The notes: generated from the sequence alone by a model not told the origin. A DNA stretch of 64,000 nt from an uncultured Candidatus Saccharibacteria bacterium (GCA_964423885.1 CAYRGD010000001.1:89653-153652); one strand, 5' to 3'. Shown: positions 19,050-42,752, counted from the stretch's first letter. Numbers and translations are program-made.

Positions 19050-20213
19050 ATGTGGTACAGTCCGGTCATGCACCGGCTTCTGGCAGCGATCTTCGTAGTC
19101 CTCGCGCTCTTGGCTCCGGCCGCGCATGCCGACGAGCCCATCTTCGAGACGCAGGCAGATGATGCTGCAGCGTACGACGAGACGGCGCTCCCTACCCTGC
19201 CGCCCGACGAGTACGCCCGCGCCCGCGTGCTTGAGGTGCTCGACCAGGGCGTACGCGACGGCGGCAGTACCGAACTCCCCTATCAGACGCTCAAGGCCCG
19301 GGTGTTGTCCGGCCCGGCCCGCGGCCAGGAGCTGACCGTGGACAACGGCACGCTTTTTTCGGTGTCCGACGGCCAGCTGCTCCGGCCGGGAGAAACCTTC
19401 GTGCTGGTTACGACGTACGCTGGCGACGGCACACCGCTCTACGCCGCGGGCGACCGGTACCGCCTGCCGCTCCTTGGCTGGTTCGTGGCCGGATTCCTGG
19501 TGCTGGTCGGCGCCGTGGCCCGACGCCGCGGCCTCCTATCGTTCCTGGGGCTCGCCGTGAGTGTCGGGATGCTCGCGCTCTACACCGTGCCGCAGCTGGC
19601 CGCGGGCGCTCCCCCGCTGCCAGTCACTTTGCTGACCGCAGCGGTGATCGTATTGGCTACGCTCTACCTTGCGCACGGGTTTACGCGTGACACGACGCTC
19701 GCGGTGGTAAGCACTGCCGGCACGCTGGTATTGGCAGGAACCATGGCCGCGGGTGCCGTGGCGCTCGCCCACCTGACCGGCGGCGGCACCGAGGATGCCC
19801 TTAGCCTGCAGTTCGGCCAGGCGGGCGTCGACCTCAAGGGCCTGTTCCTGGCCGGCATATTGGTAAGTGTGATCGGCGTGCTCGACGATATCACTACCGG
19901 GCAGACGGCCGTGGTGCGCGAGTTGCGTGCGGCCAATCCCACCCTGGGCCCGGCCGAGCTGTTCCGCCGTGCCTCGCTCGTGGGCCGTGAACATATCGCC
20001 TCGCTCGTGAATACGCTCGCGCTCGCCTACGCCGGCGTCTCGCTGCCGTTGTTCCTGGTGCTCGCGTCGAACCCGCAGCCGCTTTGGCTGGCAATGAATA
20101 GCGAATTCTTTGCCGAAGAGCTTGTCCGGACGCTGGTCGGCAGTGCCGCGTTGGTACTGGCGGTGCCGCTGTCGACCGCGCTCGCCGCCTGGTACGGCCG
20201 CACCGATCAGTAG
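19050..20213 (+). CDS. YibE/F-family integral membrane protein
   Basis: Signal peptide, ~110-aa extracytoplasmic domain, then multi-TM region with a GVLDDITTGQTAVV motif typical of YibE/F. The 3' end overlaps the first SBBP gene by 7 nt (convergent). Confidence 0.7.
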   Translation: MWYSPVMHRLLAAIFVVLALLAPAAHADEPIFETQADDAAAYDETALPTLPPDEYARARVLEVLDQGVRDGGSTELPYQTLKARVLSGPARGQELTVDNGTLFSVSDGQLLRPGETFVLVTTYAGDGTPLYAAGDRYRLPLLGWFVAGFLVLVGAVARRRGLLSFLGLAVSVGMLALYTVPQLAAGAPPLPVTLLTAAVIVLATLYLAHGFTRDTTLAVVSTAGTLVLAGTMAAGAVALAHLTGGGTEDALSLQFGQAGVDLKGLFLAGILVSVIGVLDDITTGQTAVVRELRAANPTLGPAELFRRASLVGREHIASLVNTLALAYAGVSLPLFLVLASNPQPLWLAMNSEFFAEELVRTLVGSAALVLAVPLSTALAAWYGRTDQ

Positions 20214-22816
20214 TGGGCGGTCACGTTGTAGGTGATCGTCGTGGCGTAGGCGCCGGCTGTGGTGTCCGGGCTCATGTTGGCGATGTAGCTCACAGTGTAC
20301 GTGGTCAGGCTGCTCACGCCCGGCGCTTGGGCGATGCTGTCGCCACCGACCGCGAACTTGAACTGGTTGGCAGTCTGGTACCCGCTCATCGCGGCGCCCG
20401 TTCCCCCGCTCGGGGCCGCACCGAAGTCGGCGGCGGTGTGCGACCCGGCCGCTGTGTTGGCCACAAGGTTGAAGCCGAACTGCTTGCTGCCGAGCATACT
20501 CGTTGCTTGGCTGGCCATCGCCGTAATCGTGTTGCCGCCATTCGTGAGCGTGGTCGTGGGCAGGTAACTTATCACGTAGCCGCCTGCGCCGTTGGTGCCG
20601 GCCGTTATCGTGTGGGTGCAGGCTTTGGTCTCGCTCGCCGACAGCACGCCCAGGCCGCAGCTCGCGGCGTCCACGGTAAAGTCGAAGCTGACGTTGATGA
20701 TCGTCTCGACCTCACCGGTGACGGTCACGGAATCTTCGGTGAGTTGCGCGACGAACGCGTCGGTGCTGGCAGCCTTGGTTCCTTGGAGCGGTACGGCGGT
20801 CGGCAGGTCGACCGACCCGGTTCCGCCGGTGACATACGCGTTGCCGGCAAGGCTGACTGCAAGCCCGAACCCTTGGTCGGTCCCGCCTCCTCCGAGGTAT
20901 GTCGAGTACTCGAACGCCGAACCGGCTGCGCTCACCTTCGTGACAAAGACATCCTGCGCGCCGCCGTTACTTGCCTGAAACGGCAAGACCGTTGGGAAGT
21001 TGGTAGAAAACGTTTCGCCCGCCACGTAGGCGTTCTCGTCCGCATCGAGCGCGATTGCGTACGCCGTCTCGCCGGCACTTCCTCCCAGATAGGTCGAATA
21101 CGTCAATGCGGATCCTGCAGCGTTGAACTTGGCGACGAACGCGTCGGAGCCACCCCCGTTGCCTGCCTGGATCGGCGCCGCGGTCGGGAAATCAGTGGAA
21201 GACGTATACCCGGTGACGTATATGTTCTTGTCGGTGTCCAACGTAATGGCCGTGGCATGGTCGGCCGCGCTGCCACCCAGATATGTGGCGTACGTGAGCG
21301 CCGTTCCGGTACTGTTGATCTTTGCCATGACCGCGTCGGTACCGCCTGCGTTCGCCGCCTGGTACGGCGTTGCCGTGGGAAAATCCGTCGACAGCGTGTC
21401 GCCCACGATGTAGGCGTTACCGATGTCGTCGACAGTGATGCCGTTGATCGTACTGCCGTCCGACGAGCTGCCGCCAAGGTATGTGCCATAGTCGAGCGAT
21501 GCTGCCCAGGGCGATAGCTTCGCGATGAACATGTCACTCGGGCCGGATAATGCCGCTTGGATTGGCGACGCGGTGGGGAGATCCGTCGACGTTGTCTGGC
21601 CTACGATATAGATACTCCCCTGCGGGTTGAGCGCCATCCCTTGGTAGCTCACGTTATCCGACCCGTTCCCGCCGAAATAACTGGAAAATTGCAGGCCCGA
21701 GCCGTCGTAATTGAGCTGGGTGACGAACACGTCGCCTCCGCCCCCGCCAAAGCTGCTCTGGTACGGTGACTGGACCGGAAAATCGGTCGAGGTGGTAAAG
21801 CCGGCCAGATAGATGCCGCCGTACAGATCGAGCCGGATCGCCCTTCCGTAGTCATTGTTGCTGCCGCCAAGATATGTCGCGTAGACCAACGCGGATCCCT
21901 CCCGATTGAGCTTGACGACGAACGCGTCGGTGTTCCCGGCATTGGAGCCTTGGGCCGGTGCGACGGTCGCGAAGTCCGTCGACTGGGTCTGGCCCACGAT
22001 GTAGGCGTTGCCGTTGACATCGAGCGTAATCGCATTGCCCTGGTCGATCCCGTTCCCGCCCAGATACGTGGCATATACCAGCGCCGGGTCGATAACCAGC
22101 GGTTTCGCCGGGTCGTACGTATCAGCCACGGCGACCGTGACAGTGCCGTCGTTCAGTTCGAAGCTGCTCGGGATGGTGTGTTTCTCGTGCTCGCCGGTTT
22201 GGTACGTGACCGGGGCATTCAGGGTCAGGGTATCGTCGCCGGCCTTGAGGATGAGGTTCCCGTTGCCATCAAGTGACAGATCGTCTTGCCCGGTGAAGCC
22301 GAAGGCGATTTGTTTGTAATTCGCACCGGGACTGACGATGAAGTCGTGTTCCAGCTGTGAGTTCGTGCCGTAGTAGGCGAGATCGATACCAGGATAGACA
22401 TCCTTGGCCAGCAGCTTGCCGTAGTTCGGGACATCCGACTGCCATTTCGACTGGTCGTTCCCGAGAAAGTAGTTCGTCTTCGATTGGAGTTCGTCGGTAC
22501 CGGCGAATTGCTGTTCCGCAGCGCCGGTGAGTGACATCGTCACCTGCTTCCCGCCCACACTGGTCGTGGTGCCCGTACTGGAAAACGCCGTCACGGCCTG
22601 GCCGTGGTGGACAAGGAAGTCTACCGATTCGTCCGCCTGACCTACGTTCGGTTCGAAGGCGAGCGGCAGTGTCGCGTAGGCGGCGTGCAGCGCGTCGGCG
22701 TCAGGTGTCGTGGATTGCGTCGCCGTACCGGGAACGAGCTGTAGTCGCAGCAGTACCAGCATCACGACAAGCGTGGCTGTGAGCATGCCGGTGCGACGGT
22801 GATCGTAGCGGGCCAT
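20207..22816 (-). CDS. secreted SBBP (beta-propeller) repeat protein, paralog 1
   Basis: SD AAGGAGGGGA. Signal peptide MARYDHRRTGMLTATLVVMLVLL. Conserved N-domain LAFEPNVGQADESVDFLVHHGQAVTAF...GIDLAYYGTNSQLEHDF. ~10 repeats of Y(S/A)TYLGG...G(I/L)A(V/L)D..GN.Y..G.T.S.DFPT. Conserved C-domain ending ...TTITYNVTAHY. Confidence 0.8.
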   Translation of the reverse strand: MARYDHRRTGMLTATLVVMLVLLRLQLVPGTATQSTTPDADALHAAYATLPLAFEPNVGQADESVDFLVHHGQAVTAFSSTGTTTSVGGKQVTMSLTGAAEQQFAGTDELQSKTNYFLGNDQSKWQSDVPNYGKLLAKDVYPGIDLAYYGTNSQLEHDFIVSPGANYKQIAFGFTGQDDLSLDGNGNLILKAGDDTLTLNAPVTYQTGEHEKHTIPSSFELNDGTVTVAVADTYDPAKPLVIDPALVYATYLGGNGIDQGNAITLDVNGNAYIVGQTQSTDFATVAPAQGSNAGNTDAFVVKLNREGSALVYATYLGGSNNDYGRAIRLDLYGGIYLAGFTTSTDFPVQSPYQSSFGGGGGDVFVTQLNYDGSGLQFSSYFGGNGSDNVSYQGMALNPQGSIYIVGQTTSTDLPTASPIQAALSGPSDMFIAKLSPWAASLDYGTYLGGSSSDGSTINGITVDDIGNAYIVGDTLSTDFPTATPYQAANAGGTDAVMAKINSTGTALTYATYLGGSAADHATAITLDTDKNIYVTGYTSSTDFPTAAPIQAGNGGGSDAFVAKFNAAGSALTYSTYLGGSAGETAYAIALDADENAYVAGETFSTNFPTVLPFQASNGGAQDVFVTKVSAAGSAFEYSTYLGGGGTDQGFGLAVSLAGNAYVTGGTGSVDLPTAVPLQGTKAASTDAFVAQLTEDSVTVTGEVETIINVSFDFTVDAASCGLGVLSASETKACTHTITAGTNGAGGYVISYLPTTTLTNGGNTITAMASQATSMLGSKQFGFNLVANTAAGSHTAADFGAAPSGGTGAAMSGYQTANQFKFAVGGDSIAQAPGVSSLTTYTVSYIANMSPDTTAGAYATTITYNVTAHY

Positions 22817-22892: not shown

Positions 22893-25514
22893 TTAATAGC
22901 TGGCTGTGATCACGTACGTGACCGGCGTGCTGTAGGTGCCCGCCTCGGTCGAGACGCCGATATTGCCGATGAAGCTCGCGGTAAAGGTTGTGGTGTCGCT
23001 CGGGCCGGTTGCCTCGGCAACCGTGTCGCCCCCGACCAGGAACTTGAACTGGTCCGCGGTGCCGTAGTCGGCGGCAGCCGTGCCGCTCCCGCCGCTTGGG
23101 TCGGCGCCGAAGTCGGTAGCCGTGTTCGATCCGGCAGCGGTGTTCGCTACCAGGTTCATGCCGAACTGCTCGGTGCCTGGCGTGCTGTCTGACTGGCTCG
23201 CCATCGCGTCGATCGTGTTGCCGCCGCTCGTCAAGGTCGCGGTCGGTACGTAACTCACCGCATAGCCGCTGACCGAGTTGCTGCCTGCCTCCATGGTGTG
23301 CGTGCAGGAATTGGTTTGGCTGATCGAAAAGGTACCTAGGTCGCAGGTGAGCGGGCTGACGTCGAACGACAGGAGCGGCTGCATCATGCCGTGGACGACC
23401 GTGTCGTGTTCGGTATAGCCCAAGAGGATCGCATCGGTGCCGCCATGGGAGGCGCTATCCCAGCCACCGTAACCATAAAAGGGATCCGATGTCGTGTAGC
23501 CCGTAACGTACGCGTTGCCGTCGAGGCTTACCGCTACGGCCGACCCGCTATCGTCCCCGGCGTTGTAGGAAAAGGCGGCCGTGAGCAGCTGCGAGTACGC
23601 GTCGGTCGCAAACCAGGTACCGTAGGGCGTCAGTTTCGTGAGGAAGAGATCCGTGCCACCGGAATTGACGCTGTACGACGTCCAGTTTGTCGAATCGGTG
23701 CTGCCGGTGACGTAGGCGCAGCTGCCGGGATAGCCGCTATCCCATGCGCACCCGTCGGGGGCGACCGCAATGCCGTTCGGTAGGTCTCTGCCGTTTCCGC
23801 CCAGGTACGTCGAGTACGCCAAGTAGGATCCGCTGGCGTCCAGCTTGACGACGACCGCATCGCTCGTGCCACCGCCGTAGTCGGGCTGTTCGGCCGAAGC
23901 CATCGGGAAGTCGGTCGAGTCGGTGCCTGCGGTGATATACGCGTTGCCGTCGGTGTCGATTGCCAAGTCGCCGCCATTGACCCCGTCGTCCCCGCTCCCG
24001 CCCAGGTAGGTGGAATAGGCCAATGACTGGCCGTCGGCCGCGAGCTTCGAGATGAACAGGTCGCCCGTGCCGCCGGCGGAGCTGCCCTGGTACGGTGACT
24101 CGGTCGGGTAATCGGCCGATGTCGTCGTGCCGCCCAAGTAGACGTTGCCGTCGGCGTCGAGGCCCATGCTCGGGGCGAACGTCTTGTCATCGCCTGATCC
24201 GCCCAGGTACGTGGAATACGTGAGCGACTGGCCGTCGGGCTCGAACCGGGTAATGAAGATGTCGGCACCGCCCGCGTTGTCCGGCTGGTAGGGCGATTCG
24301 ACCGGGAAGTCGGTCGAGCCCGCAATGCCGGCAACTACGAACGACCCGTCGGCGGCAGCGGCGATGTTCCGGCCTTGGTCGACGAGGCTGCCACCGAGAT
24401 AGGTCGCGTACAGGATCGTCGACAGGTCGGTGTCGAGCTTCATAGCGAACGCATTGGTGATACCGGCCAGGCTTCCCTGGTAGGCGTCTTGGACGGGAAA
24501 GTCAGTCGAGTCGGTCTGCCCCGTGATATAGACGTTGCCGTCGGGGTCGAGCGCGAGCGAGTTGATCCCGTCGTCGTCACCGTCGCCGCCGATGTACGTG
24601 GCTGCGATAAGGTCGCTGGTCGGAAAGTCGATGCCGATCGGATCGAACTTGACGATAAACCCGTCGGCGTCTCCTGCCAGACTGCCGCTCGGCCAGCCAT
24701 AGGCCAGGTCGCTCGACGCCGTGTTGCCGGCCATATAGATGTTACCGTGCTTGTCGACGGCGATCGCGTTCCCGATATCGTCCCCGCTCCCGCCCAGCGT
24801 ACTTGCGAAGATGAATGCCGGATCGATGACAAGCGGTTTCGTGGGATCGTAGGCATCGCCCACGGTGACCGTCACGGTATCGCCGTCGAGTTCGAAGCGG
24901 CTCGGCACCGTGTGGTTCGTGTGGCCGCTGCCTTGGTACGACACCGGTGCCTTGAGCGTCAGCGTCTGGCCGCTGGCGGTCATGACAAGGTTGCCGCTGT
25001 CATCCAGGGCCAGGCCGTCGTGTCCGCTGACCGAGAGCGCGATCTGCCGGTAGTCGGCACCGGGTGCCACGACAAAGTCGTGTTCGAGCGACGAACCCGT
25101 GCCGTAGTAGGTCAGGTCGATGCCGGGATAGACGCTGGCGGCGGTGATCCGGCCGAAGTTCGGGATACCCGTCCGCCACTTAGCCCGGTCGTTACCCACC
25201 AGGTAGTTGGTGACACTCCGGCGCTGTTCGGTGCCCGAAAACGCTGCCGGCTCGGCACCGATGAGCGACACGGTCACGCCCTGGTTGCCAAGGGCCGTCG
25301 TGGTGCCGCTGGCTGTGACGTACGTGACCGTGCTGCCGTGGTGGGTTACGAACTGGACGCCATCGGGTGCCTGGCCTTGGTTCGGCTCGAAGGCGACCGG
25401 ACTTTGGGTACGTACCGCAGCCGGCGTGCCACCGCCTACGTCGAACGTCGGCCGTGCCGATGCGGCAAGCAGGCCGAGGCTAAGGACGAGCAGGAGGGCG
25501 AGTCGTCGGTTCAT
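22893..25514 (-). CDS. secreted SBBP repeat protein, paralog 2 (most divergent)
   Basis: SD AAGGAG. Signal peptide MNRRLALLLVLSLGLLAASA. Same N- and C-domains (...GTYSTPVTYVITASY). The central repeats are more irregular. Confidence 0.8.
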   Translation of the reverse strand: MNRRLALLLVLSLGLLAASARPTFDVGGGTPAAVRTQSPVAFEPNQGQAPDGVQFVTHHGSTVTYVTASGTTTALGNQGVTVSLIGAEPAAFSGTEQRRSVTNYLVGNDRAKWRTGIPNFGRITAASVYPGIDLTYYGTGSSLEHDFVVAPGADYRQIALSVSGHDGLALDDSGNLVMTASGQTLTLKAPVSYQGSGHTNHTVPSRFELDGDTVTVTVGDAYDPTKPLVIDPAFIFASTLGGSGDDIGNAIAVDKHGNIYMAGNTASSDLAYGWPSGSLAGDADGFIVKFDPIGIDFPTSDLIAATYIGGDGDDDGINSLALDPDGNVYITGQTDSTDFPVQDAYQGSLAGITNAFAMKLDTDLSTILYATYLGGSLVDQGRNIAAAADGSFVVAGIAGSTDFPVESPYQPDNAGGADIFITRFEPDGQSLTYSTYLGGSGDDKTFAPSMGLDADGNVYLGGTTTSADYPTESPYQGSSAGGTGDLFISKLAADGQSLAYSTYLGGSGDDGVNGGDLAIDTDGNAYITAGTDSTDFPMASAEQPDYGGGTSDAVVVKLDASGSYLAYSTYLGGNGRDLPNGIAVAPDGCAWDSGYPGSCAYVTGSTDSTNWTSYSVNSGGTDLFLTKLTPYGTWFATDAYSQLLTAAFSYNAGDDSGSAVAVSLDGNAYVTGYTTSDPFYGYGGWDSASHGGTDAILLGYTEHDTVVHGMMQPLLSFDVSPLTCDLGTFSISQTNSCTHTMEAGSNSVSGYAVSYVPTATLTSGGNTIDAMASQSDSTPGTEQFGMNLVANTAAGSNTATDFGADPSGGSGTAAADYGTADQFKFLVGGDTVAEATGPSDTTTFTASFIGNIGVSTEAGTYSTPVTYVITASY

Positions 25515-25523
25515 GGTGCTCCT

Positions 25524-28157
25524 TCAGAAATTGGGCGTGATGATGTAGCGCATCCCGACCGCGTAGTAGCCGGCGGGGGTATTCGGCTGCACGTTGGCGA
25601 TATAGCTGGCCGTATAGGTGGTTTCCATGCTCGCCGTTGCCGACTCGGCTACTACGTCGCCGTTCGGATCGAACTTGAAGATGTCGCCGGTGTCGTAGTC
25701 GCTCGCGACCGTACCCGATCCCCCGCTTACGCCTGCGCCGAAGTCGGTGAGCGTCGACGCACCGGCGGCAGTATTCGTTGCCAGGTTCATGCCGAACTGC
25801 TCGGTGCCCGGTGTACTGCTGTCGGGCGTGGTCATGGGCGGCAAGTCTATGATCGGCCCTATCGGCCCCGACCCCGTGTACATATAGCTGATCGTGTAGC
25901 CGCCCGGCGCATTGGTGGCTGCTCTCATAGTGTGGTTGCAGAACACCGCATAGGCCGGTGAGAACGTGCCCAGGTCACAGTCGTAGCTACTTAAGGCAAA
26001 TGACAGGGTCGGATCGATGACGCCCGACGGTGCCACACCGGTCACGCCGACTGTGTACGCGGACAGTTGGGCCACGAACGCATCGGTGCCGCCGCCGCTC
26101 GTGCCTTGGAACGGCGCGACGGCCGGAAAATTGGCCGAGTTGGTCGACCCGGTAACAAACACATTGCCGTTCAAGCCGAGCGCGATCCGTGCTCCCGAGT
26201 CCGTGCTGCTCCCGCCAAAGTACGTTGAGTAGACAAGTGCCGTGCCGGCAGTATCGATTGCCGTAATGAATACGTCGATGCCGCCGCTATTGCCGCCTTG
26301 GTACGCTAATTCAACCGGAAAGTCGGTGGAAGTGGTTTGTCCGATGACGTACGCGTTCCCGCTCGCATCGACCACCAGGTTCGCGCCGACGTCGGTCCCA
26401 TTGCCGCCCAGGTAGGTGGAATAGGGTAGGGTCGAGCCCGCCGAATCGAGTTTCGTGACGAAGGCGTCGATGCCGCCGCCCCCAAGGCTGCCTTGGAACG
26501 GCGAGGACATCGGGAAGTTCGACGATCCGGTAAAGCCGGTGACGTACGCACTGCCTGTGCCGTCGACGGCGATGGACTGGCCGTTCTCGCTGCCGCTCCC
26601 GCCCAGGTAGGTCGAGTAGACCAGCGCCGAACCGGCAGCGTTCAGCTTGGTGACGAAGGCGTCTTGCCCGCCGCCGCTGCTTCCCTGGTACGGCGATGAG
26701 GTCGGGAAATCGGTCGAGGTCGTGGTGCCGGACAGGTAGGCATTTCCGCCCGCATCGACCGCGATGCCGTACGCACTGTCGCTACTGCCTCCGCCTAAAT
26801 AGGTAGCATAGGTGAGCGCCGAGCCGGCGGCGTTGAACTTGACCGCGAAGGCGTCGATCCCGCCCGCGTAGCTCCCCTGGATGGGCGAGACGGTCGGAAA
26901 GTTCGACGACAGCGTGTCACCAGCCACGTACGCGCTGCCTGCGGCGTCGACCGCGATACCCCGGGCCAGGTCGCTACTGCTCCCGCCCAGGTAGGTCGAG
27001 TAGACCAGCGCCGAACCGGCAGCGTTCAGCTTGGTGACGAAGGCGTCTTGCGATCCGTTCCGGCTTGCTTGGTAGGGAGACGAAGTCGGGAAATCGGTCG
27101 AGCTGGTCAAGCCGGCGAGGTACGCGTTGCCGTCGCCGTCGACCGCGATCCCGCCCGTATTCGACGGCGAGTCGTCGGCGCTGCCGCCCAGGTACGTGGC
27201 GTAGACCAGCGCCGAGCCGGCAGCGTTCAGCTTCGCCACGAAGACGTCGCGCGTGCCACCCGCGTTGCTGCCCTGGTACGGCGAGGCGGTGGGAAAGTCG
27301 CTCGAATCGGTAGAACCTACCACGTAGGCGTTCCCGTTCGCGTCGACCGCGATCCCGTAGCCGGTATCGCTCCCGCTCCCACCCAGATAGGTGGAATAGA
27401 CGAGCGCCGGGTCGATAATGAGCGGCTTCGCCGGGTCGTACGTGTCAGCCACGGCGACCGTGACTGTCCCATCGTTCAGTTCGAAGCGTGACGGAATCGT
27501 GTGCTTCTCGTGCTCCCCTGCCTGGTACGTGACCGGGGCGTTGAGCGTCAATGTCTCATCGCCGGCGTGCAAGACAAGGTTTCCCTGATCATTGAGCGAC
27601 AGGTCGTCTTGCCCGGTGAAACCGAACGCGATCTGCTTGTAATCCGCACCGGGACTGACGATGAAATCATGTTCCAGTTGCGAGTTCGTGCCGTAGTAGG
27701 CCAGGTCGATGCCGGGATACACGTCCTTGGCCAGCAGCTTGCCGTAGTTCGGGATATCCGACTGCCATTTCGACTGGTCGCTCCCTAGAAAGTAATTCGT
27801 CTTGCTTGGCAACTCGTCGGTACCGGAAAAATCCTGTTCCGCCGCGCCGGTGAGCGCCATCGTTACTTGTTTGCCTCCCATGCTTGTGGTCGTGCCACCA
27901 GATGAAAACGCCGTCACCGCGCGGCCGTGGTGCACCAGGTAACTCACTCCTCCGCCTGCCTGCCCCAGGTTCGGTTCGAACGCGAGTGGCAGGTCGGCAA
28001 AGGCGGCAGCCATTCCGGCACGGGCCGCATCGTCGGTGTGTGCGCCTTTAAGCTGCGGCGCGGCCAGGTCGGCTCCGAGCGCGAGCATAGCCAGCACCAG
28101 TGCGGCCGAGAGTCCGCGCCGCTGTACCATCTGCCTACGTGCCGGTGTGTTGCCCAT
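25524..28157 (-). CDS. secreted SBBP repeat protein, paralog 3
   Basis: SD GGAGGGGGAGGG. Start re-derived at MGNTPARRQMVQRRGLSAALVLAMLALG. ~10 very regular SBBP repeats. C-terminus ...YYAVGMRYIITPNF. Confidence 0.8.
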   Translation of the reverse strand: MGNTPARRQMVQRRGLSAALVLAMLALGADLAAPQLKGAHTDDAARAGMAAAFADLPLAFEPNLGQAGGGVSYLVHHGRAVTAFSSGGTTTSMGGKQVTMALTGAAEQDFSGTDELPSKTNYFLGSDQSKWQSDIPNYGKLLAKDVYPGIDLAYYGTNSQLEHDFIVSPGADYKQIAFGFTGQDDLSLNDQGNLVLHAGDETLTLNAPVTYQAGEHEKHTIPSRFELNDGTVTVAVADTYDPAKPLIIDPALVYSTYLGGSGSDTGYGIAVDANGNAYVVGSTDSSDFPTASPYQGSNAGGTRDVFVAKLNAAGSALVYATYLGGSADDSPSNTGGIAVDGDGNAYLAGLTSSTDFPTSSPYQASRNGSQDAFVTKLNAAGSALVYSTYLGGSSSDLARGIAVDAAGSAYVAGDTLSSNFPTVSPIQGSYAGGIDAFAVKFNAAGSALTYATYLGGGSSDSAYGIAVDAGGNAYLSGTTTSTDFPTSSPYQGSSGGGQDAFVTKLNAAGSALVYSTYLGGSGSENGQSIAVDGTGSAYVTGFTGSSNFPMSSPFQGSLGGGGIDAFVTKLDSAGSTLPYSTYLGGNGTDVGANLVVDASGNAYVIGQTTSTDFPVELAYQGGNSGGIDVFITAIDTAGTALVYSTYFGGSSTDSGARIALGLNGNVFVTGSTNSANFPAVAPFQGTSGGGTDAFVAQLSAYTVGVTGVAPSGVIDPTLSFALSSYDCDLGTFSPAYAVFCNHTMRAATNAPGGYTISYMYTGSGPIGPIIDLPPMTTPDSSTPGTEQFGMNLATNTAAGASTLTDFGAGVSGGSGTVASDYDTGDIFKFDPNGDVVAESATASMETTYTASYIANVQPNTPAGYYAVGMRYIITPNF

Positions 28158-28170
28158 CCCTCCCCCTCCG

Positions 28171-30750
28171 TCAGTAGTTCGCCACAATAGTATACGTTAC
28201 GAGGGTGGCATATGTCCCGGCCTCGCTCACCGACGTGATGTTGGCGATGAACGACGCATTGTAGAACGTGGTCAGGCTGGGGCCTGCGGTGTAGGCGACC
28301 GGATCCCCGCCGACCGCAAAGGTGAACTCGTCGGGCGTATCGTATCCGGCGAGCGCGACGCCCGTGCCAAGATACGGGTCGAAGCCGAAGCCGCTGTTGG
28401 CCACCAGGTTCATGCCGAACTGCTCGGTGCCCGGGTTGCTCACGTCCTGGACAGCCATGGCGTCGATCGTATTCGGCCCGCTCGTGAGCGTGGTGGTCGG
28501 CACGTAGCTCACTACGTAGCCGCCCGGGGCGTTCGAGCCCGCGTGCAGGCCGTGCGTGCAGTGCGAGACGTAGCTGTCGTTGAACGTACCCATGTTGCAG
28601 GTGGTGTCGTCGAGCGCGAATTCAAGCGTGGGGTCGATCGTGCCGGTGACCGTTATCGTCTCGCCGACCAGAAACTCCGCTATGAACGCGTCAGTGCCGC
28701 CGGCAATGCTCGCCTGGAACGGCGTTGCGGTCGGGAAGTTCGCCGAGTCGGTCCAGCCTGACGCGTACAGGCGGTGGTTGCGCAGGTATAGGCCGGCGAT
28801 CTGGTCAAAACCGCTCCCGCCCACATACGACGAGAACGTGATGCTGCTGCCGTCCGGTGCGAATTTTGTCAGGAAACCGTCGGCGCTGCCGCCGTTGCTT
28901 GCCTGGAATGCGCCTAGGATTGGGAAGTTCGTCGAGTCGGTGCGCCCTGACAGGTAGACGCTGTCGGCATCGTCGACCAGGAGGCGGTAAGCGGCATCCA
29001 AGCCCGATCCACCCAGATACGTCGAAAAGACAGGTGCCGCACCGGTCGGATCCAGCTTGATCAGGAACGCGTCGTACGCACCGCCGCCGTAGGTCGGCTG
29101 GAGCGCTGCCACGGTCGGGAAGCCGCCCTGGGTGATGCCTGTGACGTAGATATCGCCGCCGGTACCAAGGACGATGCCGTCGCCTTCGTCGTCGCCCGCG
29201 CCGCCAAAGTAGGTCGAGTACAGGAGCGACGAGCCTGTGGGGTTGAACTTGGCTACGAAGCCGTCTACGCCGCCGTTGTGGCTGCCGTCGTACGCGCTTG
29301 CCATCGGGAAGTTCGACGAGCTGGTCCGACCGGTGGCATACACGTTCTGGTCGTCATCCACCGCTATGCCGATCACCCACTCGCTCCCGTTGCCGCCAAG
29401 GTAGGTTGCGAAGACGAGTGCCGAGCCGCTGGGGTTCAGCTTGCCCAGCCAGGCGTCATTCGTAATGCCGCCGTCAGAGAGGGTCGTCTGGAATGCGCCG
29501 GGCGTGGCGAGCGCGTTGTTGTTGCCGGTGGCGCCGCCCATGTAAACGTTGCCGTCGTCGTCGATATTGATCACTTGTATGTCGGTCGCCGGTGACTCGC
29601 CGACGTACGTGGAATACACGAGCGATCCACCAGTCGGGTCGAGTTTCGTCACGAAGCCGCCGTTGGTGCCGGCCTTCACCGTTTGGAACGCCCCGGCGGT
29701 GGTTGGATAGTCGGTCGAGCCTGTCGTGCCGCCGACGTAGGCGTTGCCACCGGTATCCACGCGCAGGCCGCGCAGCTGTTCGAAGCCGGCGCCACCTAAG
29801 TAGGTGCTGTAGAGAAGTGTCGCGCCGTCGCTGCTGAATTTCGAGACGAATCCGTCGTTTCCGGCACTATAGGAACCGTCATAGGCTCCCATGATGGGCA
29901 GGTCGGACGACGCGGTCTCGCCGGCGATGTACATGTTGCCTGCTCCGTCGACCTCCATGCCGAAGCTCTGTTCGTTCCCGGTTCCGCCAAAATAGGTGCC
30001 GTAGTGCAAGACGAGTACCGGGTCGATGATGAGCGGCTTCGCCGGATCGTACGTATCAGCCACGGCGACCGTGACGGTGCCGTCGTTCAGTTCGAAGCTG
30101 CTCGGGATCGTGTGCTTCGAATTGGTGTCGGTCTGGTACGTGACCGGGGCGTTGAGGGTCAGGGTGTCGTCGCCGGCCTTGAGGATGAGGTTCCCGTCGC
30201 CATCAAGCGACAGATCGTCTTGCCCGGTGAAACCGAACGCGATCTGCCGGTAATCCACGCCGGGGGCCACAATGAAGTCGTGTTCCAGTTGGGAATTGGT
30301 GCCGTAGTAGGCCAGGTCGATACCGGGATAGACGTTGTTCGCCACCAGCTTGCCGTAGTTCGGGATATCCGATTGCCATTTCGACTGGTCGTTGCCAAGG
30401 AAGTAGTTCGTCTTACTCGGAAGCTCGTCGGTACCGGCAAAGTCCTGTACCGCCGCACCGGTGAGCGACATCGTCACCTGCTTTCCGCCGACGCTGGTCG
30501 TGGTACCGGTCGAAGAAAACGCCGTCACGGCCTGGCCGTGATGGACAAGGAAGTCTACTGATTCGTCCGCCTGACCTACGTTCGGTTCGAAGGCGAGCGG
30601 TGCCCGTGCGTAGGCGGCTTCGGCCGCGTTCGTCGCCGCTTGGTCCGTATCGGCAGTATCGGGTGCCTGCTGCGGCGCGGCGATACGGAGCCCGAGCAGT
30701 TGCACCAGTACCACCAGGGTGACAGCCGTTATCCGTTGTCTGGCGATCAT
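28171..30750 (-). CDS. secreted SBBP repeat protein, paralog 4
   Basis: Signal peptide MIARQRITAVTLVVLVQLLGL. N-domain is nearly identical to paralogs 1, 3 and 6. C-terminus ...YATLVTYTIVANY. Confidence 0.8.
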   Translation of the reverse strand: MIARQRITAVTLVVLVQLLGLRIAAPQQAPDTADTDQAATNAAEAAYARAPLAFEPNVGQADESVDFLVHHGQAVTAFSSTGTTTSVGGKQVTMSLTGAAVQDFAGTDELPSKTNYFLGNDQSKWQSDIPNYGKLVANNVYPGIDLAYYGTNSQLEHDFIVAPGVDYRQIAFGFTGQDDLSLDGDGNLILKAGDDTLTLNAPVTYQTDTNSKHTIPSSFELNDGTVTVAVADTYDPAKPLIIDPVLVLHYGTYFGGTGNEQSFGMEVDGAGNMYIAGETASSDLPIMGAYDGSYSAGNDGFVSKFSSDGATLLYSTYLGGAGFEQLRGLRVDTGGNAYVGGTTGSTDYPTTAGAFQTVKAGTNGGFVTKLDPTGGSLVYSTYVGESPATDIQVINIDDDGNVYMGGATGNNNALATPGAFQTTLSDGGITNDAWLGKLNPSGSALVFATYLGGNGSEWVIGIAVDDDQNVYATGRTSSSNFPMASAYDGSHNGGVDGFVAKFNPTGSSLLYSTYFGGAGDDEGDGIVLGTGGDIYVTGITQGGFPTVAALQPTYGGGAYDAFLIKLDPTGAAPVFSTYLGGSGLDAAYRLLVDDADSVYLSGRTDSTNFPILGAFQASNGGSADGFLTKFAPDGSSITFSSYVGGSGFDQIAGLYLRNHRLYASGWTDSANFPTATPFQASIAGGTDAFIAEFLVGETITVTGTIDPTLEFALDDTTCNMGTFNDSYVSHCTHGLHAGSNAPGGYVVSYVPTTTLTSGPNTIDAMAVQDVSNPGTEQFGMNLVANSGFGFDPYLGTGVALAGYDTPDEFTFAVGGDPVAYTAGPSLTTFYNASFIANITSVSEAGTYATLVTYTIVANY

Positions 30751-30766: not shown

Positions 30767-33352
30767 TTAGTAGTTGGCCACGATCGTGTACGTGACCGGC
30801 GTGCTGTACGCCCCGGCCTCGCTCGCGATCGTGATGTTGGCGATGAAGCTCACGGTGAAACTGGTGGTCAGGCTCGGGCCGGCTGATTGGGCGATGCTGC
30901 CTCCGGCCGTCGCGAACTTGAACAGGTTGGCCGTTTGATACCCGCTCAAGGCTGCGCCGCTCCCGCCGCTGGGCGCGGCGCCGAAGTTGCCCGCGGTGTG
31001 CGACCCGGCAGCAGTGTTGGCCGCCAAGTTGAAGCCGAATTGCTCGGTGCCGGTGACGCTCGCCGCTTGGCTCGGCATCGCGTCGATGGTGAACGGGCTG
31101 CTCGTGAGCGTCGTACCGGGCACGTAGTTGACGGTGTAGCCGCTGGGCGCGTTGGTGGCGACGCTGAACGTATGCGTGCAGTACTTGGTTTCGGTTGCCG
31201 AAAAGTGCCCCAGGTCACATAGGTTCGATCCGAGCGTAAAGGTGACCAGCGGATCGGCGATCCCGGTAACCATGAACGGCGTGTCGGCTATCTGGGCCAC
31301 GAAGGCGTCGTTCCCGCCCGCGTTCGTTGCCTGGAGTGCCGACTGGACAGGAAAGTCGGTCGAGCTTGCCATTCCGGTCAGGTATACATTCCCGTTGCTG
31401 CCGACCGCGGCCCGGAGCGAGTAGTCGACGTTGCTGCCGCCCAGGTAGGTCGAATACAGCACCGTGCTCGTGTCGGCACTCAATTTCATAGCAAAGGCAT
31501 CCGTGCTGCCGCCGTAGGTCGCTTGGTATGGCAAAACCGTCGGGAAGTTGTCCGACGAGGTCCCGCCCGAGATGTGCGCCTGGTTCGCGGCGTCGAACGC
31601 GATCCCAAGGCCTTCGTCCCAGCCATTGCCGCCCCAGTAGGTGGAAAACAGGACCGTCTGGCCGTCGGGGCTGAATTCGGTAATGAACATGTCGTGCTCG
31701 CCCGCGAAGCTCGCCTGCAGCGGATTCACCAGCGGGAAGTTAGGTGCCGGCGTACCGCCCACCACCCACCCGTTGCCATCGTTGTCGATCGCGATGCCTG
31801 CGCCGTACTCGTTAATGCCGGTGCCGCCCAGGTAGGTAATAAACTCGGGCGTACCGTCGGTATCGAACTTGGCCACGAACGCGTCCCCGTCTCCGCCACC
31901 GAACGCTGGCTGGTAGGGATTCAACAGAGGGAAGCCGTTGTCGACAGCGCCGGTAATCCAGGTGTCCCCGCTCTCGCTCACCTCCATGCCGAACGAGGCG
32001 AATTCAGGGCCTGGGCCGCCCAAGTAGGTGGCGTAGCTTAACGCCGATCCGGCGGGATTCAGTTTCGCCAGATAGAAGTCGGCACCGCCTCCGTTGGCGG
32101 CTTGGTACGGCGATTCGAGCGGCATATCAGTGGAATTCGTGTCACCGAAGATGTAGGCGTTGCCGCTCGCGTCGGTATCGATGACACGGACTCCGTCATC
32201 GCCCGAGCCGCCCAGGTAGGTGGAGTAGACCAGGGCCGATCCGGCGGGATTCAGTTTGGTCACGAAGATATCCCCGTCGCCGGCATTGCTCGCCTGCAGG
32301 GCCGAGGCGGTCGGGAAATCGGTCGACTTCGTGTTGCCGGTCACATAGGCATTGCCGCTGGTATCGACGTGCAGGCTCCAACCCTCGTCATTGCCGGTGC
32401 CGCCCAGGTAGGTGGAGTACAGAATGGCTGTTCCTGCCGCATTGAGCTTCGTAACGAAGGCGTCCGTGTCGCCGTTATAGCTGCCGTCGTACGGCGACCC
32501 TGTGGGAAAGTCGGTCGAGTCGGTTTTGCCGGTGACGTAGACGTTCCCGCTACTGTCGACCTTGATGTCGGTGGCGCGTTCGTCGCCCGTGCCGCCGAGG
32601 TAGGTCGAGTAGACGAGCGACGGGTCGATCACGAGCGGCTGGTTCCGATCATAGGTGTCGGCGACAGCGATCGTGACCGTGCTGCCGTCGAGTTCAAAAC
32701 GGCTGGGCACCGTGTGTTTGGCCGCGTCGGTTCCCTGGTAGCTCACCGGGGCATTGAGCGTGAGTTCGCGATCGCCCACCGCAAGTACCAGGTTGCCGTC
32801 GGCATCGAGCCGTAGGCTGTCGGCCCCCGAGAACGATACCGCGATCTGCCGGTAGTCGGCGCCAGGCTGCACGATAAAGTCGTGTTCGAGCGCGTTTCCT
32901 GTGCCGTAGTAGCGTACGTCGATGCCCGGATAGACGCCGGTGGCAACGAGCGCGCCGAAGTTCGGCACGTCGGTATGCCACGCGGCCGGGTCGTTGCCGC
33001 GGAAGTAGTTGGTTGTCGATGCGAGCTCGTCCTCGCCGTGCAAGGCCTGCGGCGCGGCACCGTCGAGCGTCATCGCTACCTTCGCGCCGCCGATACGCGT
33101 GACCGTACCGCCATCGTGGAACGCGGTAACCGCCTGCCCGTGGTGCACCACATAGCTGGTGCTATCGCCCGCTTGGCCGACGTTTGGCTCGAATACGAGC
33201 GGCAGATTGCCGAACCGTGTCGTAGCCGCAGCCCCTGGTGCGCTACTGTTGGGTAGCGGGAGAGCAGCCAGGTCTTGGGCAACCAGGCCGCAGATGAGCA
33301 CGAAGGCCGAAGCAACGGCGGCGCGGGGCAACGGGGTGTGGCGGTTGGTCAT
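30767..33352 (-). CDS. secreted SBBP repeat protein, paralog 5
   Basis: The track ORF runs to 33778, but the real start is MTNRHTPLPRAAVASAFVLICGLVA (SD GAGGA). The upstream in-frame extension overlaps the 3' end of paralog 6 and is Arg/His-rich junk. Confidence 0.75.
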   Translation of the reverse strand: MTNRHTPLPRAAVASAFVLICGLVAQDLAALPLPNSSAPGAAATTRFGNLPLVFEPNVGQAGDSTSYVVHHGQAVTAFHDGGTVTRIGGAKVAMTLDGAAPQALHGEDELASTTNYFRGNDPAAWHTDVPNFGALVATGVYPGIDVRYYGTGNALEHDFIVQPGADYRQIAVSFSGADSLRLDADGNLVLAVGDRELTLNAPVSYQGTDAAKHTVPSRFELDGSTVTIAVADTYDRNQPLVIDPSLVYSTYLGGTGDERATDIKVDSSGNVYVTGKTDSTDFPTGSPYDGSYNGDTDAFVTKLNAAGTAILYSTYLGGTGNDEGWSLHVDTSGNAYVTGNTKSTDFPTASALQASNAGDGDIFVTKLNPAGSALVYSTYLGGSGDDGVRVIDTDASGNAYIFGDTNSTDMPLESPYQAANGGGADFYLAKLNPAGSALSYATYLGGPGPEFASFGMEVSESGDTWITGAVDNGFPLLNPYQPAFGGGDGDAFVAKFDTDGTPEFITYLGGTGINEYGAGIAIDNDGNGWVVGGTPAPNFPLVNPLQASFAGEHDMFITEFSPDGQTVLFSTYWGGNGWDEGLGIAFDAANQAHISGGTSSDNFPTVLPYQATYGGSTDAFAMKLSADTSTVLYSTYLGGSNVDYSLRAAVGSNGNVYLTGMASSTDFPVQSALQATNAGGNDAFVAQIADTPFMVTGIADPLVTFTLGSNLCDLGHFSATETKYCTHTFSVATNAPSGYTVNYVPGTTLTSSPFTIDAMPSQAASVTGTEQFGFNLAANTAAGSHTAGNFGAAPSGGSGAALSGYQTANLFKFATAGGSIAQSAGPSLTTSFTVSFIANITIASEAGAYSTPVTYTIVANY

Positions 33353-33363
33353 GGGATCCTCGC

Positions 33364-35991
33364 TTAGTAGTTCACGACGATGGTGTACGTGATCGGCGTG
33401 CTGTACGCGCCCGCCTCGGTGACCGCCGTGATGTTGGCGATGTACGACACGGTGTACGTGGTGGGCTCGGACGCCCCGGTGGTGTGGGCGAGATCCGCCC
33501 CAGCTACGGTGAACTTGAACTGGTTGGCGGTCTGGTACCCGCTCAAGACCGCGCCCGATCCCCCGCTTGGGCCCGCCCCGAAGTTGCTCGTGGTATGCGA
33601 CCCGGCGGCAGTGTTGGCCACCAGGTTCATGCCGAACTGCTCGCTGCCGACTGTGCTGCCGGTTTGGCTCGCCATCGCGTCGATCGTACTGCCACCGTTC
33701 GTGAGCGTGCCAGTGGCTGTGTGGCTCACGACGTAGCCGCCCCCAGCGTTGCTCGCCGCGCTCATGGTGTGGGTGCACGCTACGGTGCCGTTCGGCGAAA
33801 AGTGCCCTAGGTCGCAGAGCGTCGAGCCCAAGGCGAACGCCAGGATCGGGTCGGCAACGCCGTCGACCGTCAGCGATTGCTGGTCGGGATCGTAGGGCAG
33901 CTCGGACAACTTGACCAAGAAGCTGTCGGTACTGCCGCCGTACGTTCCCTGGAACGGCAGCAGGGTCGGGAAGTTCGACGACGCGGTGTGGCCAACGATG
34001 TGCGCGTTTCCGCTACCGTCGAGCGACACGTCGGTTGCGAGATCGTTTCCACTGCCTCCCAAGAAGGTAGAGTAGATCAGCGCCGAGCCGGCCGGATCAA
34101 GTTCGGTAATGAACGCGTCCCCGCCCCCGGCATTGCTTGCTTGGTAGGGTGATCCTGCGGTCGGAAAGTCGGATGATTCCGTAAAGCCGACAACGTATGC
34201 GTTCCCCGAGGCACCGATGGCGACGTCGACGCCCGAGTCGAGCGCGCTCCCGCCCAGGTACGTCGAGTAGACGAGCGCGGTACCGGACGCATTCACTTTG
34301 GCGACGAACGCGTCCCTGGTGCCGCCGCCATAGGTGTCCTGGAATGCCGCTTCGGTCGGGAAATCGGCGGAGGCTGTCCAGCCGGAGACATAGGCCTCGC
34401 CGGTGTTCGCGACCTTGATGCGGATGCCGTCGTCGTTTCCGCTTCCGCCGAGGTATGTCGAGTAGACGAGCGCCGTGCCCGACGGGTTCAACTTCGCAAT
34501 GACGACATCAGCGTCGCCAGCGCTACTTCCCTGGATCGGCGAGGCAGTCGGAAAATCGGTCGACTGGGTGTAACCGGTGATGTACGCACTGCCCGACGCG
34601 TCGACGTCGATGTCGTATCCATGCTCATACACGCTCCCGCCGAGGTACGTCGAGTAGACGAGCGCCGTGCCGGACGGGTTGAGTTTCGTGACAAACATAT
34701 CGCCGAAGCTATTCAAACTTCCCTGGATCGGTGACGCGGTCGGAAAGTCCGTCGACTGGCTGTCGCCGGTCACGTAGGCATTGCCAGCGCCGTCGACCGC
34801 GATGCCGTCGGGCAGGTCGTAGTTGCTCCCACCCAAATACGTGGAATATACGAGCGACGAGCCGGACGGGTCGAGCTTGGTCACGAAGCCGGTGCCAATG
34901 CTGCCTGGGTTCGGCTTGGCGCCTTGGAATGCGGATTCAGTCGGAAAGTCGCTCGAGTTGGTCGCGCCGGTGATATATACGTTACCGGACGCATCCACCG
35001 CGAACTTCCGGGATTCCTCGTTCTCGCTCCCGCCGAGGTACGTCGCGTAGATGAGTGCGGTACCGGCGGCGTTCAACTTGGCCACGAACGCATCCTGGCC
35101 GCCGCTCTTGCTTCCCTGGTACGGCGACCCTGCGGTCGGGAAATCGGTCGAGGTAGTATTCCCGTGGATATACAGGTTGCCGGACGAATCGACCACGACG
35201 CCATGCGAACGGTCTTCGCCGCTCCCACCCAGGTAGGTCGAGTAGACCAAGGTTGGGTCGATAACCAGTGGTTTCGCCGGGTCGTACGTATCCGCCACGG
35301 CGACCGTAACGACGCCGTCGTGCAGTTCAAAGTTACTCGGGATCGTGTGCTTCGAATTGGTGTCGATCTGGTACGTGACCGGGGCATTGAGCGTCAGGGT
35401 ATCGCCGCCCGCTTTCAAAACGAGGTTGCCGTCATCGTCCAAGGCCAGGTCGTCCTGCCCGGTAAAGCCGAAGGCGATCTGCCGGTAATCCACGCCGGGG
35501 GCCACAATGAAGTCGTGTTCCAACTGGGAATTCGTGCCGTAGTAGGCCAGGTCGATGCCGGGATAGACGTTGTTCGCCACCAGCTTGCCGTAGTTGGGAA
35601 TATTGCGTTGCCATTGGGATTGGTCGTTGCCGATAAAGTAATTGGTGTTCGATGCGAGTTCGTCGGTACCGGCAAAGTCCTGTGCCGAGGCGCCGGTCAA
35701 CGTCATCGCGATCTGTTTCCCGCCCACGCTCGTCGTGGTGCCAGTGCTGGAAAACGCCGTGACCGCTTGGCCGTGGTGTACCAGGAAGTCCACGGAGTCG
35801 TCCATCTGGCCGAGGTTCGGTTCGAACGCGAGCGGGAGATCGGCCAGTCCGGCGCGGCTCGTTGCTGCCTGCTCCGTGGGCACTGTCTGTCGCTCGGCGG
35901 CGATACGCAGGCCCAGGCAGGGCAGCGCGATAAGAAGCGCGAGCGCGGCGCGGCGGGTAGCGGTGTGGGTGCGGAACGTGCGTGCGGCCAT
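33364..35991 (-). CDS. secreted SBBP repeat protein, paralog 6
   Basis: SD GGAGGGA. Signal peptide MAARTFRTHTATRRAALALLIALPCLGL. Same architecture. C-terminus ...YSTPITYTIVVNY. Confidence 0.8.
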   Translation of the reverse strand: MAARTFRTHTATRRAALALLIALPCLGLRIAAERQTVPTEQAATSRAGLADLPLAFEPNLGQMDDSVDFLVHHGQAVTAFSSTGTTTSVGGKQIAMTLTGASAQDFAGTDELASNTNYFIGNDQSQWQRNIPNYGKLVANNVYPGIDLAYYGTNSQLEHDFIVAPGVDYRQIAFGFTGQDDLALDDDGNLVLKAGGDTLTLNAPVTYQIDTNSKHTIPSNFELHDGVVTVAVADTYDPAKPLVIDPTLVYSTYLGGSGEDRSHGVVVDSSGNLYIHGNTTSTDFPTAGSPYQGSKSGGQDAFVAKLNAAGTALIYATYLGGSENEESRKFAVDASGNVYITGATNSSDFPTESAFQGAKPNPGSIGTGFVTKLDPSGSSLVYSTYLGGSNYDLPDGIAVDGAGNAYVTGDSQSTDFPTASPIQGSLNSFGDMFVTKLNPSGTALVYSTYLGGSVYEHGYDIDVDASGSAYITGYTQSTDFPTASPIQGSSAGDADVVIAKLNPSGTALVYSTYLGGSGNDDGIRIKVANTGEAYVSGWTASADFPTEAAFQDTYGGGTRDAFVAKVNASGTALVYSTYLGGSALDSGVDVAIGASGNAYVVGFTESSDFPTAGSPYQASNAGGGDAFITELDPAGSALIYSTFLGGSGNDLATDVSLDGSGNAHIVGHTASSNFPTLLPFQGTYGGSTDSFLVKLSELPYDPDQQSLTVDGVADPILAFALGSTLCDLGHFSPNGTVACTHTMSAASNAGGGYVVSHTATGTLTNGGSTIDAMASQTGSTVGSEQFGMNLVANTAAGSHTTSNFGAGPSGGSGAVLSGYQTANQFKFTVAGADLAHTTGASEPTTYTVSYIANITAVTEAGAYSTPITYTIVVNY

Positions 35992-41720: not shown

Positions 41721-41765
41721 TCGGCGTATGCCGGGCAAAAATATGGAAGGGAACATTAAAAAGAG

Positions 41766-42335: not shown

Positions 42336-42751
42336 CGCCCCCGCTCTGGCTCGACGAGTGCATCTGCGTCCGCGCCTCGGTGCGGGTTGACTACGCGATT
42401 ACCTGTTTCCTGTACGGGCAGGTTACGTTCGGGAAGTACGCCTGGCGGTTCACGGCGACGGATCTCTTCGATCCGGCCCGTGAGTTCCACATCAAATTCA
42501 AATTGATGGGCCAGCCGAAGTGGGAGGATTCCATTTCGCTACCCCGCAATACCCACAAACATCCGTTGATCGAGCGTCGCCCGATCACTCGGATCTTAGC
42601 CGAGTTGGTCTCGATCGCCTTCGGGCGGAGCGAGACGGCTCTTACCGACCAAGAGGTGCACGTGCTGTACCTCGAGTCCGACATCCTGGATGCATGCAAC
42701 ACGACTGCCGAGGCGGACGTGTGGGTGCATGCCAAACACATCGCACACTAA
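42332..42751 (+). CDS. hypothetical protein (139 aa)
   Basis: Coupled to the upstream ORF and followed directly by a strong terminator. The longer 362-aa track ORF in the same frame has a junk-like R/P-rich N-terminus. Confidence 0.35.
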   Translation: MTPPLWLDECICVRASVRVDYAITCFLYGQVTFGKYAWRFTATDLFDPAREFHIKFKLMGQPKWEDSISLPRNTHKHPLIERRPITRILAELVSIAFGRSETALTDQEVHVLYLESDILDACNTTAEADVWVHAKHIAH

Positions 42752-42752
42752 C

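Follow-up and report, generated by a model that had tools for sequence, protein, structure and literature searches.

The 64,000-nucleotide stretch of DNA analyzed here (below, the window) comes from an uncultured “Candidatus Saccharibacteria” bacterium (GCA_964423885.1, CAYRGD010000001.1:89653-153652) and contains eight tandem, codirectional minus-strand genes, which occupy positions 20207-41251 and are separated by intergenic gaps of 9-76 nucleotides (nt) (Table 1). After correction of the starts, the genes encode proteins of 859-877 amino acids (aa), in which a large N-terminal region with a beta-propeller is followed by a C-terminal module of ~150-170 aa that we assign, by profile matching, to the pilin subunits of the Pam pilus system. 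Paralog 1 is 100% identical to P0121, a protein located on a 292,834-bp NCBI contig; the C termini of Paralogs 2 and 3 are identical to those of P0214 and P0143, respectively, and P0361 (875 aa) starts at the ATG of Paralog 8 (MRVLAGIG...). The true start of Paralog 5 is the ATG at 33352, with GAGGA ahead of the start codon, and the protein is identical to P0183; a mechanically called open reading frame (ORF) at 30767-33778 is an overextension. Outside the window, the same contig encodes at least two further complete proteins of the propeller-Pam family, with lengths of 860 and 865 aa, as well as two fragments of 237 and 651 aa; the proteins of these extra copies are P0127, P0135, P0002, and P0207. 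Together with the eight genes in the window, this genome therefore possesses at least 10 full-length genes of the family.

Table 1. Positions of the eight paralogous genes and of the component parts of Paralog 1 in the window
Feature	Position (strand)	Length (aa)	C-terminal domain	Match or description
C-terminal region first noted	20207-20705 (-)			Stop codon, last 165 codons, and one extra base of gene 20207-22816
Paralog 1	20207-22816 (-)	869	20210-20671	Signal-like helix, DUF7948, propeller, linker, Pam C-terminal domain
Paralog 1, Pam pilin domain	20210-20671 (-)			NF058581, 124 bits (cutoff 55), profile positions 2-148/148
Paralog 1, linker “SVTVTG”	20714-20731 (-)			Between propeller and C-terminal domain; candidate donor strand
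Paralog 1, seven-bladed SBBP beta-propeller	20741-22081 (-)			PF06739 repeats, seven matched stretches (Pfam)
Paralog 1, DUF7948 domain	22085-22657 (-)			PF25778, 176 bits
Paralog 2	22893-25514 (-)	873	22896-23348	NF058581, 132.5 bits
Paralog 3	25524-28157 (-)	877	25527-25985	NF058581, 111 bits; last residue F
Paralog 4	28171-30750 (-)	859	28174-28608	NF058581, 111.6 bits
Paralog 5	30767-33352 (-)	861	30770-31228	NF058581, 123 bits
Paralog 6	33364-35991 (-)	875	33367-33822	NF058581, 116.7 bits
Paralog 7	36002-38614 (-)	870	36005-36463	NF058581, 118 bits; Pfam DUF7948 and SBBP
Paralog 8	38624-41251 (-)	875 from ATG	38627-39082	NF058581, 115 bits

The N-terminal region of ~700 aa consists of DUF7948 and a seven-bladed SBBP propeller. 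In the three genes scanned with Pfam, DUF7948 (PF25778) was followed by six or seven SBBP repeats (PF06739). The propeller is the most variable part of the proteins, with 38 to 50% identity between paralogs, while DUF7948 and the C-terminal domain are 56 to 74% and 54 to 68% identical, respectively. All eight N termini have a basic start followed by a hydrophobic stretch, and the proteins are predicted to carry a Sec signal. The full-length AlphaFold2 (AF2) model of Paralog 1 (predicted local distance difference test score [pLDDT], 87.8) comprises, in order, a signal-like N-terminal helix (residues 7-27), the beta-rich DUF7948 domain, the seven-bladed propeller, a segment at residues 696-709, and the C-terminal domain. 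The best Protein Data Bank (PDB) match of the propeller in Foldseek is CylK (E value, 1e-23).

The shared C-terminal module and its family

The last ~170 residues of the eight proteins align with one small indel, and their pairwise identity over the last 190 aa is 43 to 70%. The 170-aa alignment (A1) has 35 invariant columns, both cysteines (C21 and C34 of A1) included, and a mean column identity of 66%; the terminal residue is tyrosine in seven of the eight proteins and phenylalanine in the other. Eight residues are deleted in one loop of the Paralog 4 domain, and the Paralog 1 domain, an incomplete immunoglobulin (Ig)-like fold, terminates in ...TITYNVTAHY. Judging from these alignments, the likeness of the eight modules is one of homology rather than chance. 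The initial annotation of the window, made from the sequence alone, had described just such a distinct C-terminal domain common to all eight paralogs, and in this respect it was correct.

The module matches the NCBIfam model NF058581 (CPR_Pam_pilin_C, “Pam pilus system pilin subunit”) in all eight proteins. Scores of 111 to 132 bits are about twice the curated cutoff of 55, E values lie between 1e-32 and 1e-38, and the matches cover the profile from positions 2-5 to 148 of 148. They extend over the last ~145-154 aa, and the 15-20 residues ahead of them form strand A and the linker. On this profile evidence, the module is identified as the incomplete Ig-like domain with which the pilins of the Pam system end, an identity that is well supported. 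The initial annotation had proposed a new domain and had itself named a match to a described domain as the finding that would speak against novelty; NF058581 provides that match for all eight copies. Because the module belongs to a curated family, structurally described in a preprint (bioRxiv 10.64898/2026.03.03.709456), the proposal of a novel domain is refuted.

No Pfam family was found for the C-terminal module in scans of the module and 115 relatives (families including WxL, Fimbrial, and T9SS), and a PDB sequence search with the module profile returned chance matches only, such as RutA and GlmU at E values of >0.1. The module also matched no Pfam or NCBIfam model of sorting or anchoring domains (LPXTG, T9SS-CTD, WxL, PEP-CTERM, or S-layer homology [SLH]), in agreement with the initial annotation, and the C termini, which end in ...TYTIVANY, have neither a hydrophobic-plus-basic tail nor a transmembrane tail.

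The AF2 model of the module (pLDDT, 92; predicted template modeling score, 0.83) was compared with the PDB by Foldseek. About two-thirds of the top 50 matches are chaperone-usher pilus subunits (CS20, CfaB, the PapGII pilin domain, FimF/G, Csu, and Caf1), to which TasA is added; the matches are weak by E value (≥1.2e-3), and the PapGII pilin domain is among the best of them (probability, 1.0; TMt, 0.55 to 0.57). In this model, the fold class of the module is that of chaperone-usher-pilin-like Ig-like domains, and, if chaperone-usher pilins are a guide, the alternating-hydrophobic strand with its aromatic end would form the final strand of the Ig-like pilin fold. The resemblance of this strand to C-terminal signatures of outer membrane proteins or secretion substrates, which had been pointed out before, is superficial: the predicted fold is of the Ig-like pilin type, and the host is a Patescibacterium. 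The two cysteines, reported as invariant, are so in the eight paralogs, but the pair is missing from most of the wider module family. It is kept among 54 unique database relatives, which a search with the Cys-pair pattern had retrieved, and one two-domain pilin of Berkelbacteria (locus L010) has it too.

The module is found far beyond the propeller proteins. An exhaustive hidden Markov model (HMM) search of 1.84 billion cluster representatives (50%-identity clusters) yielded 1,048 matches, 542 of them at E values of ≤1e-10; among the matches listed, the module lies at the extreme C terminus of host proteins of 235 to 2,295 aa. In a scan of GTDB species genomes, 67 loci were found, nearly all in metagenome-assembled genomes (MAGs) of Patescibacteria or Saccharibacteria. 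Three main architectures bear the module, with lengths of ~240 aa, ~350 aa, and ~865 to 885 aa (the last with SBBP). Larger carriers of up to 2,295 aa include P0370, P0419, P0421, P0428, and P0371, several of them without a Pfam domain; one carrier of 1,927 aa has a lactonase-type propeller ahead of the module, and some large carriers have a different predomain segment, e.g., ..TPAAAQSLTFSLG, in place of the V-T-G linker. The profile search for other N-terminal cargoes that the initial annotation had recommended thus found the module on many architectures, and the module is therefore not specific to the propeller family, as had been suggested.

Tandem arrays of SBBP fusions are present in at least three other MAGs (L001-L004). 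The host of the window has a G+C content of 63% and belongs to a Berkelbacteria-related lineage; SecD in the window is 64 to 68% identical to SecD of “Candidatus Berkelbacteria,” and the closest module loci are from Patescibacteria and Saccharibacteria MAGs. Three MAGs labeled as something other than the candidate phyla radiation (CPR) also bear Pam pilin genes, namely, L015 (Gammaproteobacteria), L011 (Bdellovibrionales), and L047 (Dormiibacterota). L015 has a G+C content of 35% and is closely like the Uhrbacteria locus L016. These are probably mislabeled or misbinned CPR contigs and not exceptions to the restriction of the system to CPR bacteria.

The N-terminal cargo has its own distribution. 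The DUF7948 and SBBP region (20741-22657 in the window) is 40 to 47% identical to proteins of Acidobacteria (Bryobacteraceae and Pyrinomonadaceae) and has relatives in other phyla too. The homologues P0122, P0130, P0136, and P0202 have quite different C termini, such as TIGR03437-type modules. Because DUF7948 plus SBBP occurs in these phyla with different C termini, the sequence comparisons suggest horizontal acquisition of the region and domain shuffling into the CPR lineage, and soil bacteria such as Acidobacteria may have been the source of the N-terminal domain.

Linker and placement among Pam pilins

The Pam pilus was not described until 2026, in a single cultivated species whose pilins are small beta-sandwich proteins. 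Cryo-electron microscopy (cryo-EM) of filaments of the CPR bacterium “Ca. Mycosynbacter amalyticus” identified two pilins, PamA and PamB, in which the N-terminal domain is a nine-strand beta-sandwich and the C-terminal domain takes the linker of the adjacent subunit by donor-strand exchange, with a rise of ~51 Å per subunit. The pam operon also encodes the membrane-anchored chaperones PamC/D, a predicted single-domain tip protein, PamT, and the anchor PamR; propeller or SBBP proteins are not mentioned in the preprint (bioRxiv 10.64898/2026.03.03.709456).

As judged from the NF058581 profile and the published description, the eight proteins share with PamA, PamB, and PamE a truncated C-terminal Ig-like domain, the order of N-terminal domain, linker (here a candidate donor strand), and C-terminal domain, a Sec signal (predicted here), paired cysteines, and a CPR host. 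They differ in having DUF7948 and a seven-bladed propeller instead of the beta-sandwich, in being encoded by arrays of eight genes (at least 10 full-length copies on a contig) that are not accompanied by genes for chaperones, anchor, or tip, and in their occurrence in a Berkelbacteria-related lineage of high G+C content rather than in Saccharimonadia or Microgenomatia; moreover, Pam filaments have been seen by cryo-EM, and those of the propeller proteins are putative. Because they have neither the beta-sandwich N-terminal domain nor the operon context of canonical Pam pilins, they are best called a new architectural variant of Pam pilins, present in arrays in a Berkelbacteria-related lineage that the preprint does not emphasize.

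Directly ahead of the C-terminal domain, the 54 unique family members have a linker of the pattern [ST]-hydrophobic-x-V-[ST]-G-x-x-(D/N/Q)P-x-L-x-F-x-L. The closest two-domain Pam pilins of ~350 aa have the pattern as well (“QVTVTASVDETLTFTL” in L042 and L013), and the L010 pilin (“GVVVSAQVNPTLTFTVDSTTCDLG..TCSHT”) has both the linker pattern and the Cys pair in common with the propeller proteins. The linker (residues 696-709) stands out in the full-length monomer model, in that no other internal segment has a pLDDT of <50; a strand able to fold only in trans would be expected to behave in this way. A neighbor-joining tree of 139 C-terminal domains places all propeller-protein domains in one clade, the sole outsider in which is the Berkelbacteria two-domain pilin of L010.

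These observations bear on whether the proteins should be compared with the tip protein PamT. Their Ig-like domain aligns to the PamT equivalog model (NF058579), and most of the short database relatives are PamT-like proteins of ~240 aa, which had made up most matches in an early search. The eight proteins score 92 to 119 bits against a cutoff of 240, however, and cover profile positions ~70-241 only; this partial score is uninformative, since ordinary two-domain pilins reach the same values. The early bias toward relatives of ~240 aa vanished in the exhaustive search. PamT is a single-domain protein with SxNY repeats, in contrast to the much longer, linker-bearing proteins described here. In the PamT-like proteins (L047:9746-10483, L019, L025, P0010, and P0040), three SxNY repeats ~20 residues apart lie between the signal peptide and the Ig-like domain, i.e., in the position of the shaft-pilin linker, and the linker motif is lacking. 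In view of the linker comparison, the tree, and the equal scores of two-domain pilins, a PamT-like reading was rejected. The shared linker pattern, the tree, and the low-confidence linker segment therefore lead us to read the proteins, on sequence and model evidence, as probable shaft-type pilins with a replaced N-terminal domain and not as PamT-like tips.

Proposed role and competing explanations

The computations establish which family the domain belongs to, its fold class, the architecture of the proteins, the distribution of the family, and the lack of machinery genes in the window; groove geometry, donor-strand insertion, polymerization, and an adhesive role are what we infer. We think it rather probable that the eight proteins are Pam pilins that bear cargo, with pili serving to display the variable propellers. 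After export by Sec, the first strand (..P.L.F.L..) and the last strand (..TYTIVANY) of the incomplete Ig-like domain would flank an open groove, which would be completed in trans by a beta-strand from a neighboring subunit through donor-strand exchange. The most likely donor is the linker (hydrophobic-x-V-T-G) of one subunit, inserted into the C-terminal domain of the next. Chaperones, the genes for which would lie elsewhere in the genome, as would that for the anchor, would assist assembly, and the paralogs would be built into or onto Pam-type surface filaments, on which the divergent propellers could serve as binding modules for host or prey surfaces. The initial annotation had offered sorting, anchoring, or assembly as possible roles; assembly or attachment is the most likely of these, with the terminal strand being important as had been supposed, and the idea of a new sorting signal is not retained.

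Several points weigh against this assignment. The linker identity among the paralogs is low (~36%), with conservation of the hydrophobic pattern only, and the donated linker of Pam pilins is reported to be highly conserved (bioRxiv 10.64898/2026.03.03.709456). N-terminal domains of ~700 aa would have to fit a filament with the rise per subunit given above, and both the open groove and the proximity of the two cysteines are putative features of the module model. In addition, the 64-kb window has no gene for a PamC/D-like chaperone, a PamR-like anchor, a PamT-like tip, a two-domain pilin, or a beta-helix neighbor, and such machinery genes were likewise not found beside the arrays on four related contigs. 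This search used local HMMs built from 40 to 49 canonical loci, which gave nothing at E values of ≤1, and ten flanking genes were also scanned with NCBIfam. At the Berkelbacteria locus L010, the chaperone HMM reaches 282 bits with the chaperone-like gene beside the pilins. Co-occurring envelope-assembly genes, which the initial annotation had considered worth seeking, were thus not found within the window or beside related arrays.

Bulky propellers may stack poorly along a shaft, and each paralog could instead be a two-domain adhesin of the FimH/PapG kind, a single copy of which sits at the tip, or directly below it, of a pilus whose shaft consists of ordinary small Pam pilins encoded elsewhere, with the eight or more paralogs as alternative tips. 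In FimH and PapG, too, a large binding domain is followed by an incomplete Ig-like pilin domain that acts as acceptor. The Gly...Tyr alternating-hydrophobic motif of the C-terminal strand and the good rank of the PapGII pilin domain among the fold matches fit the comparison as well, and many divergent paralogs would suit alternative specificities. Yet the proteins keep a shaft-type linker motif that a terminal subunit does not need, the tree joins their C-terminal domains to two-domain pilins, away from PamT-like tip proteins, and their PamT scores, far below the cutoff, are no better than those of ordinary two-domain pilins; we therefore regard a role restricted to the tip as unlikely. The comparison with FimH and PapG has further limits, in that no Pfam Fimbrial match was found among 115 family members, no usher-like gene is present in the window, and there is no outer membrane. 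Unlike in chaperone-usher pilins, the candidate donor strand is an internal linker and not the N-terminal extension of the next subunit, and the chaperones of the Pam system are membrane anchored.

It is also improbable, in our view, that the C-terminal domain docks by strand complementation on a single membrane-anchored partner (PamR-like or DUF916/WxLIP-like), so that the propeller is held at the cell surface without polymerization, as proposed for the “large WxL proteins” of Firmicutes. The WxL clusters encode a small protein that consists of the domain only, a large protein in which binding domains precede a C-terminal copy of the domain, and an Ig-like partner that has a transmembrane helix at its C terminus and for which insertion of a strand into the WxL domain is predicted; peptidoglycan is the presumed ligand of WxL proteins, which are not known to polymerize (PMC9772566, PMC10599100). 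The same logic of small protein, large protein, and membrane-anchored Ig-like partner, the lack of pilus machinery beside the arrays, and the homology of Pam chaperone-like proteins to DUF916/WxLIP proteins (see below) fit such tethering. It is disfavored by the assignment of the C-terminal domain to a curated pilin family of a system known to form filaments and by the conservation of the linker motif. The module also contains no tryptophan, a WxL motif is lacking, none of the 115 family members matched PF13731 at E values of ≤10, and an hhalign comparison with the small protein beside the DUF916 gene of Clavibacter was not significant. Finally, the terminal alternating-hydrophobic strand with its aromatic end and the lack of LPXTG, T9SS, PEP-CTERM, SLH, and WxL matches could point to a new, family-specific sorting or secretion signal or to an outer-membrane-type beta-signal. 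This is effectively excluded by the confident match to a described pilin domain, by the nature of the module as a folded Ig-like domain of 150 aa rather than a short signal, by its presence on about a thousand unrelated architectures, and by a Patescibacterial host. To our knowledge, Patescibacteria have no classical outer membrane.

Returning to the assignment as cargo-bearing Pam pilins, a broader and more tentative proposal, which we hold to be possible yet doubtful, is that the Pam linker and C-terminal domain form a portable polymerization cassette for very large, swappable cargo (in this case SBBP propellers; in other proteins, propellers of the lactonase type and stretches of up to ~2,100 aa without annotation) and that the at least 10 full-length paralogs of this Berkelbacteria-related lineage copolymerize into propeller-studded filaments that set the range of hosts or prey. 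As a domain discovery, the module has been superseded by the existing curated model, and it does not represent a new kind of system. The fusion of a propeller to the Pam domain is not reported in the one paper that describes the pilus, and the proteins extend the system to a Berkelbacteria-related clade of high G+C content. How ultrasmall CPR bacteria recognize and hold their hosts is largely unknown, and propeller-Pam proteins are useful in this regard. If the proposed role is true, the pilus would be a general scaffold for the display of large, fast-diverging binding domains, and the arrays, which take up about 3% of a genome of ~1 Mb, would be candidate determinants of host range in uncultivated lineages.

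Relatives of the Pam chaperones and flanking genes

All four PamC/D-like chaperones compared with Pfam (L013:10435-11418, L053:5634-6632, L010:10522-11466, and L042:11249-12292) have near-full-length, subthreshold matches to PF06030 at 18 to 24 bits. By tblastn, a “DUF916 domain-containing protein” of a Clavibacter plasmid (L068:6971-8026) was found at an E value of 2e-7 over 97% of the query, and the Pam chaperone HMM scores 85 bits on this protein. By sequence, then, the Pam chaperone-like proteins are homologous to Gram-positive DUF916/WxLIP proteins, which suggests a relationship between the Pam pilus system and the WxL/DUF916 surface clusters. As a further possibility, the whole Pam system could be the CPR branch of Gram-positive DUF916/WxLIP-based surface systems. 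A link between Pam and WxL/DUF916 is not mentioned in the preprint (bioRxiv 10.64898/2026.03.03.709456). The small protein encoded beside the Clavibacter DUF916 gene has no Pfam family, and homology between WxL and Pam domains by way of this protein was not significant (hhalign probability, 0.3%).

The array is flanked in the window by genes for a YibE/F membrane protein, MazG, DUF4349, thioredoxin, NrdJ/NrdR, a UvrD-type helicase, SecDF, and two VirD4-like coupling proteins. The convergent YibE/F-family gene at 19050-20213 (+) overlaps the stop region of Paralog 1 (20207, -) by 7 nt, so that there is no space for a terminator between the two genes. The coupling-protein-like ORFs are adjacent at 2905-5355 (816 aa) and 5352-8237 (961 aa), both on the plus strand and each with an N-terminal transmembrane helix; they have weak matches to T4SS-DNA_transf/TraG-D_C and TrwB_AAD_bind and, on this evidence, may be part of a Patescibacterial type IV secretion system.

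A promoter and terminator scan and an Rfam scan gave nothing relevant. Upstream of the MazG gene and the array lies a stretch of ~1 kb (41757-42740) without a convincing gene, where the ORFs have no family match and an odd composition. It is bounded by a strong hairpin at 42750-42777 with a 12-bp stem and a T-tract, and it may be a promoter or regulatory region of the array.

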